64,000 nt of DNA from Escherichia phage 1-6af. Under the pieces are notes generated by a model. The model was not told where the DNA came from. It worked only from the letters and a program-made list of their open reading frames with translations, and ran no database searches. The translations under genes were made by a program, and so were the position numbers. Numbering within the stretch: the first letter of the stretch is position 1; each line of letters starts with the position of its first letter. Positions 25,836 through 29,027 of this stretch are shown one piece after another. The stretch is from the sequence record OR983333.1; one strand, 5' to 3'.

Positions 25836-26678
25836 TTACCAAGATTTATCTAACCATGTCCAGTCGAACAGGTCTTCCGGAGCCTGACCAACAAAGAGCA
25901 GCCGAGCATTCTCAAGCATCTTCTCTTCATCTTCAGTATCGAACTTCTTATAGTATTCCATTCGTACTATATGATACATGGTCCACTTATCTGTAACACC
26001 AGCCAACAATTTAGCTGCTGCCTTCTTCCCTATTCCTTGACGTCGAAGCTGAAGCTTACCGCCCCACATAACTTCTTTACGTTCCCCACATCCGGGGATA
26101 TTATCCGTACCATCTCCAATCAACATTTGATAGAAGAAGTTTTGCCATGAGACTAAATCGGATACATAGTGAGGAGGAACTTCTTTCTGTCTTTCTCCAC
26201 AAGCCCAGCGATAATGCCATCCGGGAGTTATCAACAAATCCTTGTCTCTAGTACAGATGATAGTATTCTTATCCCTACGTTGTCTTTCAGCTAGTGCATC
26301 ATCAGCTTCTCTCCCAAAGACCTCAATGTATTCGTACTTGGCTTTAATGTAATCACCAACGTTTTGCCAGTGAAAAGGTCTTTCTCCGGGAGGTCTGTTT
26401 GCCTTGTAGTCTTGCTGCTTAGCAACATCAAAACGGAAGTTACCGCCTTCGCTGAAGTAGAACACAACCTTACTGCAACCTGAGCGAGCAATGATTGTAT
26501 CTATCTTGTACTGAAGTCGTTCAATCATGAAATTGTAATCAACTGGAACACGTCCTGTGTCAAGAAAGGGATGCTCCTGAGTAAGAGCACCCACTTCATA
26601 TCGAAGAACGTCAGCATCCACTATAGCAACTTCAGGGAGCTTAACTTCTTCCATAAATATCATCCTGAGCTTGAGCAA
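25836..26678 (-). CDS. 5'-3' exonuclease / flap endonuclease
   Basis: H3TH-like GIGKKAAAKLL motif; sits with T7-like replication genes. Confidence 0.55.
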   Translation of the reverse strand: MLKLRMIFMEEVKLPEVAIVDADVLRYEVGALTQEHPFLDTGRVPVDYNFMIERLQYKIDTIIARSGCSKVVFYFSEGGNFRFDVAKQQDYKANRPPGERPFHWQNVGDYIKAKYEYIEVFGREADDALAERQRRDKNTIICTRDKDLLITPGWHYRWACGERQKEVPPHYVSDLVSWQNFFYQMLIGDGTDNIPGCGERKEVMWGGKLQLRRQGIGKKAAAKLLAGVTDKWTMYHIVRMEYYKKFDTEDEEKMLENARLLFVGQAPEDLFDWTWLDKSW

Positions 26679-27540
26679 TAATCCAATCTAGATCTGAGAC
26701 TGCTGATTCGATGGTTGAGTCATTAAACAGTAGATATGTTTTTCTCTGTTCGCCTTCAATATATGAACGAGAGTCTCCATCAAAAGAGCAACCATCTCTA
26801 AGAACTTGGACAACTTGGACATGGAAATTCTTTTCTAGTTCTCGTACCTCTGCATCAAAACCTCCGTCAGTAAACACGACAATATCATCCTGACCTAGCC
26901 CTTCTTGTTTGATACTTTTTACAGCAAGATTCCCCATATGATTGTTGCCAAACATAGGTTTTAAGAAGTCTTCACTTGTAGAAATCATCAAATCTCTTAC
27001 AGACTTCCCTCCCCATTCTGGTCTATGTTTTTCTTTCCATTCACGATCTTCATAGCGTGCTAGAAAATTTTCTAGAGGTATTCCTAGTGCAGCAGCAGCT
27101 ACTCTGTACATTGGCTCCTTGAAGGATTTGGTTGAATATCCGTGGTGGTATGAATGGGCATTGACCCAAGCATTGGCTATCGTATCTTTACCACAACCCG
27201 GAGGCCCATTAAGAATTACTACTAAAGGCTTATAGTGGGAATCTCCCACCATATTGGTCAGTGCTGGATTGCCTTGAGATTCCATTTCTAATTGCTCCGT
27301 GTGGTCATGTGAGTAATCTACTGGAGAAGTTTTGTTACCAGTAACTTTAGGTAAAATCGCTCTAGTTGTTTCTACGTATCTACCGCCATCAACATTGATT
27401 TGAAACTCTACAAGTTCATTCTGTAATTCATACCCTGATAAGTTGGATAGCTCCTCCAACTCATCTCTGACGAAATTTAAATGTTTGATTTTAATTGCAA
27501 GAGCTTTCTTTAAAGCTTTTACCTCTTCATTCATTCCCAC
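26641..27540 (-). CDS. P-loop nucleotide/nucleoside kinase-like protein
   Basis: Walker A ILNGPPGCGKDT; specificity unknown. Confidence 0.45.
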   Translation of the reverse strand: MGMNEEVKALKKALAIKIKHLNFVRDELEELSNLSGYELQNELVEFQINVDGGRYVETTRAILPKVTGNKTSPVDYSHDHTEQLEMESQGNPALTNMVGDSHYKPLVVILNGPPGCGKDTIANAWVNAHSYHHGYSTKSFKEPMYRVAAAALGIPLENFLARYEDREWKEKHRPEWGGKSVRDLMISTSEDFLKPMFGNNHMGNLAVKSIKQEGLGQDDIVVFTDGGFDAEVRELEKNFHVQVVQVLRDGCSFDGDSRSYIEGEQRKTYLLFNDSTIESAVSDLDWIIAQAQDDIYGRS

Positions 27541-27923
27541 TCTCCAGTGATTTCCATATCGGCTTTATCTCCTTTCTTAGTAAGGAGGATTGCTGGTTTA
27601 TTCTTACTCTTCATATACTCAAACATATGCATAGAGCCTCTTGACTCTCCATCCCAGAAGACTATCACTGCATCTGCATACTCACCCATGTCTACGTTTC
27701 GAAGTATCCCAGCCTTTTTGCCGAGAGTGTTCCACGAAGGAATGAAACGTTTGATAGGTATGTCATTATGTTTAGCAACAGCCTCTCCGTGAAGATCTGG
27801 ACCTCTTGCACCACCTGACACAACTTCTGAAATCAGCTTGGGGATTTCCTCTGGAAGCAAAGCCCACATCTGAGTAAAAGAATGCCAGTCTATCGACCGG
27901 CTTCCTGCGATTATTACTTTCAT
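27531..27923 (-). CDS. SLOG-like (LOG/DprA-like Rossmann) protein
   Basis: KVIIAGSR...SGGARGPD pattern; tentative. Confidence 0.3.
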
Positions 27924-28567
27924 GTAATCAATCCTTGAAACTCTTCTTTATCGAAGTGTTTTTCTACCACATATTCATACAGATCTTTTAACTCCGCATA
28001 TCTACGGTAGAATGTTCCGTGTGACATTCCAATGGTTTTCTGGATGTGGTCATGCGGTATTCCCAAGAAGATCATAGAGAACATATTGGCTAACTTCTGA
28101 GTATCCATCGTATCACTTAAATCTTGGAAGAAATAGAAGATACGAGACTCCATGAATGGGTCTCCAACACAATCTTGCTTATCCATAGCAATCTCTAAAG
28201 GACTATCAACCATATCAGGAGTACGGAACATATCAGCCTCTGGAATTGAGTAGATACGACGGTCCCCTACAGTCTGCCTATTTGAACGTATAGACCAGAT
28301 AATATTCTTGACTCGATAAGTCATATGCTCTTGGTCTTTCTCATCCTCTAGGACTCTCTCATCCTGCTTAGCGAAGACAAATCTCCAAGCATTCAAGAGC
28401 ACTTCCTGTGCCACATCTTCTGCTTCATGGTAATCCCTGATATCGTACATGAAGAACTTGTGAACCACTTTCCAGTTCACTTTATAAAACTCTTCATAGT
28501 TTGAGATATATTTGATTGGGATTCCATGAATTCGATATCTTGTAGGTGTTGTTTTCTTCGCCATCAT
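27920..28567 (-). CDS. ECF-like RNA polymerase sigma factor
   Basis: Region 2-like [14 protein letters not shown] and region 4-like [22 protein letters not shown]. Confidence 0.55.
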
Positions 28568-28586
28568 CTTTCCTTGTTGTTGGCTA

Positions 28587-29027
28587 TTATAGACAGATAT
28601 AGACAGGTATGTCCATCTGATTTAGATACTTAAACATTATAGGTCTTACCTGAGACTGATAATCTAACCCTCCATTACCACAGCCTAAAGGCGTTATCGC
28701 CAAAGATGTTATACCTTTCTCTTTGTAGGTAAATAGTAACTTTTGTAAACCTTGTTCTATCCACTCTACCTCAGAACCATTCCTCCAATGTTTCTTGGTT
28801 GGAAAACACAGCCCTAATCTCCCATCATTTAACCTCTGTAGGAGAAGCTGTCCAATCTGGAATCCAGAGTTGCAAGCAACTTTATACCTCTCAAAAGCTT
28901 CAGGGTATCTTCTTTTATACTCCTTAGCCACTCCTGCACCCATTACACCAACTAGGTTTACTGTACAGGTTACTGTTTGGACGTCCACCGTGAATACATT
29001 GGCTTTTCCTTCAAAAACAATAGCCAT
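28587..29027 (-). CDS. macro-domain-like protein (ADP-ribose binding/processing), start at internal ATG 29027
   Basis: [15 protein letters not shown] and [16 protein letters not shown] blocks resemble macro-domain Gly-rich loops. Confidence 0.45.
28633..28648 (-). promoter_or_regulatory. promoter-like element TAAGACCTATAATGTT upstream of sigma gene
   Basis: Contains TATAAT and the TAAGACCTA element also found upstream of the + strand TAATGTATA sites. Confidence 0.3.

Follow-up and report, generated by a model that had tools for sequence, protein, structure and literature searches.

A stand-alone DarG2-type macrodomain beside the sigma factor gene of a phiEco32-like phage: a probable orphan antitoxin of the AdfM type

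Background

Why does a phiEco32-like podovirus carry a macrodomain gene directly upstream of the gene for its own sigma factor, and does the encoded protein act together with the SLOG-fold protein and the P-loop kinase encoded next to it? A preliminary description had regarded these genes as an early cluster in one operon with the sigma gene. As a function it had suggested either the reversal of ADP-ribosylation imposed by DarT-type toxins or the processing of NAD-derived signals. The first descriptions of phage macrodomains able to reverse DarT2 damage date from 2025-26 and concern T4 and nucleus-forming jumbo phages. The window analysed here is the whole 64-kb stretch of DNA.

Gene content and transcription of the locus

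The source of the window is a Kuravirus (phiEco32-like), and the region in question holds the middle-class genes 37 to 34. The locus is 100% identical to that of Escherichia phage FH3 and 96-97% identical to those of SU10 and phiEco32 (approximately 96.5% for phiEco32). The four ORFs correspond to gp37 (macro), gp36 (sigma), gp35 (SLOG) and gp34 (kinase) of phiEco32 and all lie on the minus strand. The sequence motifs quoted for them before were found in place, namely GGARGPD in the SLOG protein, GPPGCGKDT in the kinase and both Gly-rich loops in the macro protein. The features are as follows:

25836..26654, minus strand: 5'-3' exonuclease / flap endonuclease, phiEco32 gp33 homologue (PHROG 107, 4.8e-65; Pfam 5_3_exonuc_N, 5.8e-07), with the start position inferred from the phiEco32 annotation
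26641..27534 (or 27540), minus strand: dNMP kinase (predicted), phiEco32 gp34 homologue; the stop codon of the SLOG gene is overlapped by its ATG at 27534
27531..27923, minus strand: stand-alone SLOG-fold protein of 130 aa (YAcAr/DUF2493), phiEco32 gp35 homologue; its start overlaps the sigma stop codon (ATGA)
27920..28564 (or 28567), minus strand: phage ECF-like sigma factor, phiEco32 gp36 homologue (PDB 9m7y chain F, PHROG 1740)
28587..29027, minus strand: macro protein, phiEco32 gp37 homologue, 146 aa from the ATG at 29027 (Pfam, PHROG and DarG models)
28586..28615, minus strand: predicted sigma-70-like promoter, TGGACA-18-TATAAT, matching at 11 of 12 positions in a consensus scan, at the 3' end of the macro gene and just upstream of the sigma gene
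30810..30818, minus strand: candidate gp36-type middle promoter element TAATGTATA, an exact match, upstream of the gene-40 homologue (30004-30750)

The four ORFs are real genes and not chance ORFs, because they have Pfam and PHROG matches (macro 7e-34, sigma 3.5e-45 with PHROG 1740, SLOG 2.5e-25, kinase 3.4e-56), the sigma protein is nearly identical to a solved chain and the regions are near-identical in related phages. With approximately 99% identity to the phiEco32 gp36 chain 9m7y_F (213 of 214 residues, E 3e-145), the gene 36 product is the phage sigma factor gp36, which would stand outside the mechanism proposed below for the macro protein. The existing labels in FH3, SU10 and phiEco32 are 'Appr-1-p processing enzyme family', 'RNA polymerase sigma factor', 'GTP-binding domain' and 'dNMP kinase'.

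The idea of a common operon holds for the sigma, SLOG and kinase genes, which overlap by ATGA at both junctions and continue with a 14-nt overlap into the exonuclease gene, the last one of this overlapping string. A gap of 19 nt separates the sigma gene from the macro gene upstream of it, whose neighbour on the other side is an o-spanin gene. [quoted passage not shown]

An internal sigma-70 promoter that could drive gene 36 has been predicted within gene 37 of phiEco32 (PMC8948821), and the putative promoter at 28586..28615, which we recognise by consensus match only, agrees with it. Both the gp36 promoter consensus and the site upstream of gene 40 are taken from PMC8948821, and the element at 30810..30818 is the likely source of transcripts reaching the macro gene. 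If one mismatch is allowed, the gp36 motif occurs 21 times in the whole window against 17.8 expected occurrences, which is not above chance; we therefore used only exact matches at positions known from phiEco32. A terminator-like hairpin (29558-29541) is located upstream of the macro gene. Given this hairpin and a gp36-dependent middle promoter, the macro protein may arrive relatively late.

The macro protein is a DarG-type macrodomain without DarT

The macro-domain assignment of the preliminary description proved right. Pfam Macro (PF01661) is matched with 42.5 bits (cut-off 22; E 7.4e-11), and a phmmer search of the PDB returned DarG macrodomains as the top relatives, namely those of M. tuberculosis (5m3i, 7e-28, residues 5-141) and T. 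aquaticus (5m31/5m3e, 1.6e-25); 7omu, a macro-domain protein of 406 aa, was found with E 2e-26. The macro fold is thus assigned by sequence homology to solved DarG structures. In the same search, TARG1 was reached at 0.008 and no MacroD-type protein was found. The NCBIfam model antitoxin_DarG matches with 5e-42, at a score of 144.3 that lies below its cut-off of 250 and with positions 6-144 of 338 covered, and the PADLOC model for DarG matches with 3.8e-45 over positions 6-142 of 329. As this coverage shows, the 146-aa protein lacks the C-terminal DarT-binding domain and is not a full-length DarG2.

The phage protein shares 41-42% identity with the solved macrodomains of T. aquaticus (Taq) and M. 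tuberculosis DarG. Twelve of 15 pocket or mutagenesis residues of Taq DarG, as listed in PMC5179494, are identical, including N22, K80, H82, W83, G117, G119, N120 and G121. N24 and K78 of the phage protein align to Taq N22 and K80 and are invariant across 65 homologues; H80, W81, G115, G117, N118 and G119 are also the same as in Taq. The positions of Taq K29 and Q34 differ and are occupied by Ala31 and Glu36. The exchange K29E lowered the activity of Taq DarG (PMC5179494), and an alanine at the K29 position is also present in the active AdfM protein of PhiKZ. Trp81 is kept in the phage protein, whereas TARG1 has an alanine there; a tryptophan at this position has been proposed to stack on the modified thymine (PMC5179494). 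The mechanism with a catalytic lysine is common to TARG1 and DarG (PMC5179494), and with both this lysine (Taq K80 / TARG1 K84) and the asparagine (Taq N22) present the phage protein belongs to the DarG/TARG1-type hydrolases. By its homology and the family models the gene 37 product is a DarG2-type macrodomain, corresponding to the N-terminal part of such an antitoxin, and its catalytic residues are intact. It is predicted to act as a DNA ADP-ribosyl glycohydrolase.

DarT (PF14487) is the partner of 67 of the 80 bacterial and archaeal homologues nearest to the phage protein (43-53% identity); it is encoded immediately downstream in 53 cases, upstream in 13 cases and fused in one. A further homologue with 51% identity is located after a gene for a Sel1-DarT fusion. 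The Kuravirus locus is not a DarTG2 operon, as an adjacent DarT gene (PF14487) is missing, and a six-frame search of the whole 64-kb window with a DarT profile derived from 48 neighbour genes of bacteria detected no DarT-like ORF up to E 0.1. Since there is neither a DarT-binding domain nor a DarT in the window, the macro protein is an orphan antitoxin-like enzyme. Without this domain and an adjacent DarT it could act only enzymatically and not by sequestering the toxin.

Comparison with known anti-DarT factors

The most informative relative is gp104 of PhiKZ, the anti-DarT factor macro (AdfM) described in 2026 in chimalliviruses, which strips the ADP-ribose placed by DarT2 off DNA and shields the phage from DarTG2 (PMC13309987). 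The Kuravirus protein is 41% identical to it over 148 aligned positions, gaps included (BLASTP, E 4e-35). Both are stand-alone DarG2-like macrodomains of approximately 150 aa in lytic phages without DarT, and both have the Asn/Lys pair (N24/K78 in the Kuravirus, N23/K78 in PhiKZ). Being such a macrodomain and homologous to the validated AdfM, the Kuravirus protein falls into the AdfM type. There are also differences. Kuraviruses are an unrelated lineage of podoviruses with a genome of 78 kb and form no phage nucleus, so that nuclear import is not an issue. In the PhiKZ protein, an insertion of 9 residues precedes the second Gly-rich loop and the C-terminus is longer. Its activity against DarTG2 has been validated, whereas that of the Kuravirus protein is predicted.

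The DarG2 proteins of T. aquaticus, M. tuberculosis and EPEC contain a homologous macrodomain, and the closest bacterial homologues of the phage protein are DarT-linked. However, DarG2 has approximately 290-400 aa including the C-terminal DarT-binding domain, in contrast to 146 aa in the Kuravirus. The isolated macrodomain of Taq DarG is enough to neutralise DarT (PMC5179494).

The name AdfM has also been given to Tk.4 of T4, the knockout of which makes T4 sensitive to DarTG2 (bioRxiv 10.1101/2025.11.20.689424). This protein is a phage stand-alone macrodomain as well, but it shares only 19% identity with the Kuravirus protein (hhalign probability 94%) and lacks the PTKKHW catalytic-lysine motif at the aligned position. 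Because of this remote kinship and the differing position of the catalytic lysine, we rejected an equation of the two proteins; Tk.4 probably goes back to an independent acquisition of another macro subtype. AdfN (PMC11825919), an anti-DarTG1 factor, follows a similar principle, in that the phage keeps only the enzymatic half of the antitoxin and erases DNA ADP-ribosylation. It has the unrelated NADAR fold, however, and its target is the guanine adducts of DarT1 and not the thymine adducts of DarT2.

Proposed role and alternative substrates

Taken together, the macro protein is probably an orphan antitoxin of the AdfM type that removes the ADP-ribose attached by DarT2 to phage DNA. The DarG2-type sequence with its intact catalytic residues, the 41% identity to AdfM and the DarT partnership of 67 of the 80 homologues all favour the reversal of DarT-type ADP-ribosylation suggested before; the hydrolase activity itself, DarT2 as the natural target and the timing are inferred. 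An E. coli host carrying DarTG2 would ADP-ribosylate thymidines in the single-stranded DNA of the phage. The macro enzyme would then hydrolyse the bond between thymidine and ADP-ribose with Lys78 as the catalytic residue. Positioning of the modified base would fall to Asn24 and Trp81, and the ADP-ribose would be held by both Gly-rich loops. Once the ADP-ribose is removed, replication could proceed. Being expressed along with replication genes, the enzyme would be present at the time single-stranded DNA appears.

If this is true, AdfM-type counter-defence would reach small, non-nucleus-forming E. coli phages of the kind used in therapy cocktails, and the misleading annotation as 'phosphatase' would be corrected. 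Kuraviruses with the macro gene would then be predicted to be resistant on DarTG2 hosts and those without it sensitive. The 'Appr-1-p processing' gene of phiEco32-like podoviruses can already be placed in the same DarG2-derived clade as AdfM of PhiKZ. We found no paper tying a Kuravirus to DarTG, and DarTG is nowhere mentioned in the BASEL phenotyping paper. It has been speculated that Gordonclarkvirinae possess modified DNA (PMC11990801), and this could alter whether DarT2 can target these phages.

It is improbable that the substrate of the macro protein is not DNA but a soluble derivative of ADP-ribose, be it ADP-ribose-1''-phosphate, O-acetyl-ADP-ribose or an immune signal derived from NAD. 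The database names 'Appr-1-p processing' and 'phosphatase' point in this direction, Iyer et al. 2022 suggested such roles for phage macro domains generally, and a SLOG gene is sometimes found near a macro gene (in Erwinia phage RAY and in 3 of 79 SLOG loci). However, the protein falls within the DarG/TARG1 branch, which has a catalytic lysine, and not within the MacroD/YmdB type, as the YmdB-like NCBIfam model gives 0.009 compared with 5e-42 for DarG. Moreover, the overwhelming partner of the bacterial homologues is the DNA-modifying toxin DarT, and DNA is the substrate of the 41%-identical PhiKZ protein. We see no specific support in this macro clade for the processing of NAD-derived signals considered in the preliminary description.

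A reversal of protein or RNA ADP-ribosylation is likewise unlikely, be it TARG1-like on ADP-ribosylated glutamate or directed against RNA-modifying ART toxins. Phage or host factors could be the beneficiary in this case instead of DNA. Macrodomains are often promiscuous. Among the solved families TARG1 comes next in similarity (E 0.008), and it shares the catalytic lysine mechanism (PMC5179494), but the similarity to DarG exceeds that to TARG1 by many orders of magnitude, Trp81 is conserved in contrast to the alanine of TARG1, and the genomic partner of the bacterial homologues is DarT.

Distribution of the macro and SLOG genes

The macro gene is missing at the same locus in a Suseptimavirus and in some Kuravirus genomes; myPSH2311-type phages and 101114UKE3 are examples of natural isolates without it. 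In the Suseptimavirus, a related phage of the Gordonclarkvirinae, the SLOG gene is absent as well and the kinase gene is still located beside the sigma and exonuclease genes. Some Kuraviruses possess the SLOG gene but no macro gene. Vice versa, phage DE15, a coliphage of the unrelated family Chaseviridae, possesses the macro gene (81% identity) on its own. Macro and SLOG are thus dispensable accessories, and the macro gene is a mobile one that is common to Kuraviruses and this Chaseviridae phage.

The SLOG protein

The earlier calls of a SLOG-like protein and a P-loop kinase are both confirmed by fold comparison of predicted structures. The SLOG protein matches Pfam YAcAr/SLOG (PF10686) with 28.8 bits at a cut-off of 28.2 and has the SLOG fold. 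Sequence search of the PDB with this protein yielded HEV ORF2 and YlqF, which are chance-level matches. As in YpsA, DprA and ShosA, a GSR motif follows strand 1 and an SGGARGxD motif is present, but the protein has no accessory domains within its 130 aa and is only 11-24% identical to them. The likeness to ShosA and DprA (280-350 aa) is structural only, at 17-24% identity. Assignment to the ShosA or ThsA family was rejected, since there is fold similarity alone and no match to the PADLOC and NCBIfam models. The literature on DUF2493 yielded no functional data; it records only that ICP1 has such a domain fused to an SF1B helicase. The homologues mostly adjoin genes for thymidylate synthase, flap endonuclease and ribonucleotide reductase. 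We consider the gp35 homologue a small SLOG-fold protein of phage replication and nucleotide-metabolism modules that is predicted to bind nucleotides or single-stranded DNA.

One could assume that the SLOG protein, being coupled to sigma translation, is a second orphan counter-defence factor and forms with the macro protein a two-gene anti-defence cassette flanking the sigma gene, but we assign this a low probability. Such a SLOG protein might process NAD-derived immune signals enzymatically or soak them up as a sponge, as ThsA-type SLOG domains bind 3'cADPR, or it might mimic a DprA-like antitoxin such as ShosA. The adjacency of macro and SLOG genes, which recurs in the unrelated Erwinia phage RAY and the viral contig L125, would in this case mean cooperation on ADP-ribosylated single-stranded DNA.

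The kinase and the question of a common module

It is very improbable that the macro protein, the SLOG protein and the kinase cooperate in a single ADP-ribose/NAD-processing module whose genes are expressed along with that of the sigma factor. In such a module the SLOG protein might, for instance, detect or split a signal derived from ADPr, and the kinase might phosphorylate the product. The genes are contiguous, and there is translational coupling between SLOG and kinase. The Kuravirus has both macro and SLOG, both are missing at the Suseptimavirus locus, and the two adjoin each other in Erwinia phage RAY and contig L125; SLOG-Macro neighbourhoods and SLOG-guanylate-kinase fusions have also been noted before (PMC9503650). 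Against this, a SLOG gene lies within 6 kb in only 1 of 78 non-Kuravirus macro loci and a macro gene in only 3 of 79 SLOG loci. SLOG genes without macro in some Kuraviruses, the macro gene alone in DE15 and the mostly ThyX, flap endonuclease and RNR neighbours of SLOG genes likewise speak against a module, as does the kinase, which is structurally nearest to the T4 dNMP kinase and whose gene keeps its place beside those for sigma and exonuclease in the absence of macro and SLOG. Profile searches around 80 viral macro homologues gave, outside Kuravirus, a single locus with SLOG and no locus with the kinase, and a profile search of the loci of 80 SLOG homologues revealed macro in three and the kinase in two. 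One conserved module was thus rejected. Neither the joint ADP-ribose/NAD function implied by the preliminary description nor any functional link among the three genes is supported, and the apparent cluster is a mosaic, which guards against over-interpretation.

When the PDB was searched with the kinase sequence, the only matches were to the P-loop of AAA ATPases; the relationship to T4 gp1 became apparent only when folds were compared. The P-loop kinase domain comprises residues ~104-299, and both its NMP-kinase fold, with T4 gp1 as the nearest structure, and the family model support a T4 gp1-like dNMP kinase. On the basis of this structural comparison the gp34 homologue would feed phage DNA synthesis and have no part in the macro mechanism. 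It shares 19% identity with T4 gp1 (PDB 1dek) and differs from it by an additional N-terminal domain of approximately 100 aa (residues 1-100), a lineage-specific helix and beta-hairpin that is also found at the N-termini of DUF3310 proteins of other Kuraviruses.

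Family and active site of the macro protein

The macro protein is best read as a product that would counteract DarT, a function to which both its homology and its genomic context point. Reversal of DarT-type ADP-ribosylation had been raised tentatively in the preliminary description and is the best-supported reading of the gene. Its assignment to the macro fold was right as well, since the protein matches Pfam Macro above threshold and finds its best PDB matches in DarG macrodomains. In a search against all PDB sequences, the DarG macrodomain of M. tuberculosis came out on top (5m3i, E 7e-28), followed by a 406-aa macro-domain protein (7omu, E 2e-26); the T. 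aquaticus (Taq) DarG macrodomain (5m31/5m3e) was matched with E 1.6e-25, whereas TARG1 (E 0.008) was far weaker than DarG. The DarG models of NCBIfam (antitoxin_DarG, 5e-42) and PADLOC (3.8e-45) were both matched over the first 142-144 profile positions only, with an NCBIfam score below the full-length cut-off. From this partial coverage it follows that the protein corresponds to the macrodomain portion of DarG2 and lacks the portion that binds DarT. The Taq DarG macrodomain is by itself sufficient for the neutralisation of DarT (PMC5179494).

Fifteen Taq DarG residues that contact ADP-ribose or had been mutated (PMC5179494) served as the active-site set, and 12 of them are identical in the macro protein. 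The catalytic lysine is kept (K78, Taq K80), and N24 corresponds to Taq N22, the Asn whose mutation had the second most damaging effect (PMC5179494). Further identities concern His80, the Gly-rich loop (G115, G117, N118, G119) and Trp81, for which stacking of the equivalent tryptophan on the modified thymine has been proposed (PMC5179494). At the position of Taq K29 there is an alanine, as in PhiKZ gp104. Neither N24 nor K78 varies across a 65-sequence family alignment.

Cellular homologues and their DarT partners

The 120 closest homologues in a search of 5.8 billion sequences are all 118-247 aa long. In bacterial and archaeal contigs, with one genome per species, we surveyed the 80 nearest homologues, which share 43-53% identity; the majority have about 290-310 aa and an N-terminal macrodomain. 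Their flanking ORFs were scanned with Pfam, and a DarT profile was afterwards made from the DarT neighbours. DarT (PF14487) accounted for 48 of 48 downstream and 13 of 31 upstream neighbours scanned with Pfam, and the profile revealed a DarT partner at 67 of the 80 loci (53 immediately downstream, 13 upstream, one fusion). A 51%-identical Bacteroidales homologue comes after an 832-aa Sel1-repeat-DarT fusion gene. No DarT was found in the window with this profile. The phage macro gene is an orphan of a clade whose cellular members partner DarT.

The typical order of such loci is darT-darG. It is reversed at 53 of the 80 loci (L176-L255), where the closest cellular DarG-like genes, mostly about 300 aa, lie upstream of a DarT gene of about 330 aa. 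At L179 macro and DarT are fused, and some Bacteroidales loci (L090, L092) pair a short macro protein with a Sel1/TPR-DarT fusion of at least 830 aa. These are variant DarTG architectures.

Relation to AdfM and distribution in phages

Of 50,697 phage records searched in translation, 305 contained a macro homologue, among them PhiKZ gene 104 (40.5% identity; 41% and E 4e-35 by BLASTP). PhiKZ gp104 is AdfM, which strips DarT2-placed ADP-ribose off DNA and shields chimalliviruses from DarTG2; the same paper states that no macrodomain Adf (anti-DarT factor) had been reported earlier (PMC13309987, 2026). T4 Tk.4, whose knockout renders T4 sensitive to DarTG2, was likewise named AdfM in a 2025 preprint (bioRxiv 10.1101/2025.11.20.689424). 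Tk.4 resembles the macro protein only remotely, at 19% identity and with an hhalign probability of 94%, and has no lysine at the position aligned with the catalytic one. The gene already carried a macro-family annotation, and its kind, the orphan DarG2-like macrodomain AdfM, has meanwhile been characterised by experiment in other phages. A literature search found no paper treating the Kuravirus macro gene as anti-DarT, and DarTG goes unmentioned in the BASEL paper that phenotyped these phages (PMC11990801). What is new is that the Kuravirus gene falls in the AdfM clade, has an intact active site and is accessory and patchily distributed.

Suseptimavirus 101114UKE3 keeps the order spanin, sigma, kinase, exonuclease, with a 74-aa ORF in place of the macro gene and no SLOG gene at the locus. 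The spanin-to-sigma spacing is only about 260 bp in the small-genome Kuravirus myPSH2311, and on a single IMG/VR contig of a Kuravirus the SLOG gene is present with no macro gene within 6 kb. The Chaseviridae phage vB_EcoM_DE15 carries an 81%-identical macro gene alone amid small early-type ORFs. This patchy distribution fits the pattern of a mobile counter-defence gene.

Organisation and expression of the block

Over the 4-kb stretch around the macro-kinase block, the window matches Escherichia phage FH3 at 100% identity and both SU10 and phiEco32 at 96-97%; phiEco32 is the type Kuravirus within the Gordonclarkvirinae. The four ORFs and the peptide motifs described for them were all found in the window sequence:

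28587-29027, minus strand: macro gene, 146 aa, ATG at 29027
27920-28564, minus strand: sigma gene, phiEco32 gene 36 homologue
27531-27923, minus strand: SLOG gene, phiEco32 gene 35 homologue
26641-27534, minus strand: kinase gene, phiEco32 gene 34 homologue
28615-28586, minus strand: near-consensus sigma-70 promoter (TGGACA-18-TATAAT), in the macro 3' end and the macro/sigma gap
30818-30810, minus strand: exact gp36-type element TAATGTATA, upstream of the gene-40 homologue

The four ORFs, from macro to kinase, correspond to phiEco32 genes 37, 36, 35 and 34 and already bear the public labels 'Appr-1-p processing enzyme family', 'RNA polymerase sigma factor', 'GTP-binding domain' and 'deoxynucleoside monophosphate kinase'. 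A longer, GTG-initiated macro ORF differs from the annotated gene. Since the sigma/SLOG and SLOG/kinase junctions are ATGA overlaps and kinase and exonuclease genes overlap by 14 nt, these four genes form a single translationally coupled string. The macro gene lies upstream of it, 19 nt from the sigma gene, and is preceded by the o-spanin gene with a TAATG overlap.

The sigma-70-like promoter agrees with the one predicted within phiEco32 gene 37, which could serve gene 36, and a gp36-dependent promoter upstream of gene 40 has been mapped experimentally in phiEco32 (PMC8948821). The block had been labelled early, which is wrong because the homologous phiEco32 genes 37-34 were assigned to the middle expression class, not the early one (PMC8948821).

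Exact TAATGTATA elements occur in opposite orientations at 30818-30810 (minus) and 30882-30890 (plus), with further copies at 3891 (plus) and 20203 (plus), the latter immediately ahead of a 1488-aa ORF. A terminator-like hairpin (AGCCACC-TCCG-GGTGGCT plus T5; 29541-29558, minus) between the HNH and i-spanin genes may reduce how many transcripts started at the gene-40 promoter reach the spanin and macro genes. This HNH/NUMOD4 homing-endonuclease gene (29581-29994, minus) separates the gene-40 homologue from the spanin genes; it is found in FH3 and SU10-like genomes and missing from phiEco32 and Bas90, whose alignments to the window end at 29581; another HNH gene lies at 25255-25656. A 167-aa calcineurin-like metallophosphoesterase (31297-31800, minus; GDGHLGH...GNHD motifs) is shared with Bas90 ('phosphoesterase') and myPSH2311 ('serine/threonine phosphatase'); phiEco32 has only small ORFs (genes 41-47) and no annotated metallophosphoesterase at the matching position.

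The SLOG and kinase genes

The macro, SLOG and kinase genes had also been grouped as one cluster, with a joint ADP-ribose function implied. A general tendency to macro-SLOG adjacency has been described (Iyer et al. 2022, PMC9503650), and it recurs in Erwinia phage RAY (gp152/gp153) and on one contig (L125). However, adjacency is far from obligate: among 79 viral SLOG loci only 3 have a macro gene within 6 kb, and among 78 non-Kuravirus macro loci only 1 has a SLOG gene that close. The block is a mosaic of the middle class rather than a dedicated ADP-ribose system, and both SLOG and kinase genes belong to a replication and nucleotide module.

The SLOG and kinase identifications themselves were correct, the former borne out by fold comparison.

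Fold comparison of the SLOG protein (scores)
B. subtilis YpsA: 11.8
ShosA (DprA-like): 11.8
DprA proteins: 11.4-10.0
LOG phosphoribohydrolases: 9.8-9.6
ThsA SLOG domain bound to 3'cADPR: 9.1

Because nucleotide-binding (YpsA, LOG, ThsA) and ssDNA-binding (DprA) relatives score similarly, the fold alone cannot assign a function, and the conserved GSR and SGGARGxD motifs are found in both kinds of relatives alike. SLOG homologues occur in 645 phage records. Genes directly adjacent to 79 close viral homologues mostly serve replication or nucleotide metabolism (ThyX 9, flap endonuclease 7, ribonucleotide reductase about 5, metallophosphoesterase 4, family A DNA polymerase 2, NADAR 1, NMN transporter 1). 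The closest non-Kuravirus phage homologue (44% identity), from Proteus phage P59 (L007, record 36.5-44.9 kb), lies directly behind genes for a PnuC-like NMN transporter and a nucleoside 2-deoxyribosyltransferase and ahead of an anaerobic RNR gene; this nucleotide and NAD-precursor context might hint at the SLOG ligand.

Kinase-domain homologues are present in 1,447 phage records, many annotated as dNMP kinase, and nothing ties the kinase to ADP-ribose. In related Gordonclarkvirinae it is a 198-aa protein; the 297/299-aa form looks like a lineage-specific fusion. Residues 1-100 (27235-27534, minus) are predicted to form a long helix and a beta-hairpin (pLDDT about 70) and share 77-91% identity with the N-termini of separate 175-aa proteins of other Kuraviruses, which run on into DUF3310 (PF11753) and there accompany a separate 198-aa P-loop kinase. 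This suggests that two genes underwent a deletion or fusion, or else exchanged domains.

In the Bas90 record (43-58 kb, L093), Kuravirus replication genes are interleaved with those for thymidylate synthase, dCTP deaminase, a nucleotidyltransferase, a GlmS-like amidotransferase, an amidoligase/COOH-NH2 ligase and a gamma-glutamyl cyclotransferase. DNA base modification has been speculated on in the BASEL paper (PMC11990801). If thymidine were replaced or modified, this would be relevant both to the substrates of the dNMP kinase and to the ability of DarT2 to target this phage.
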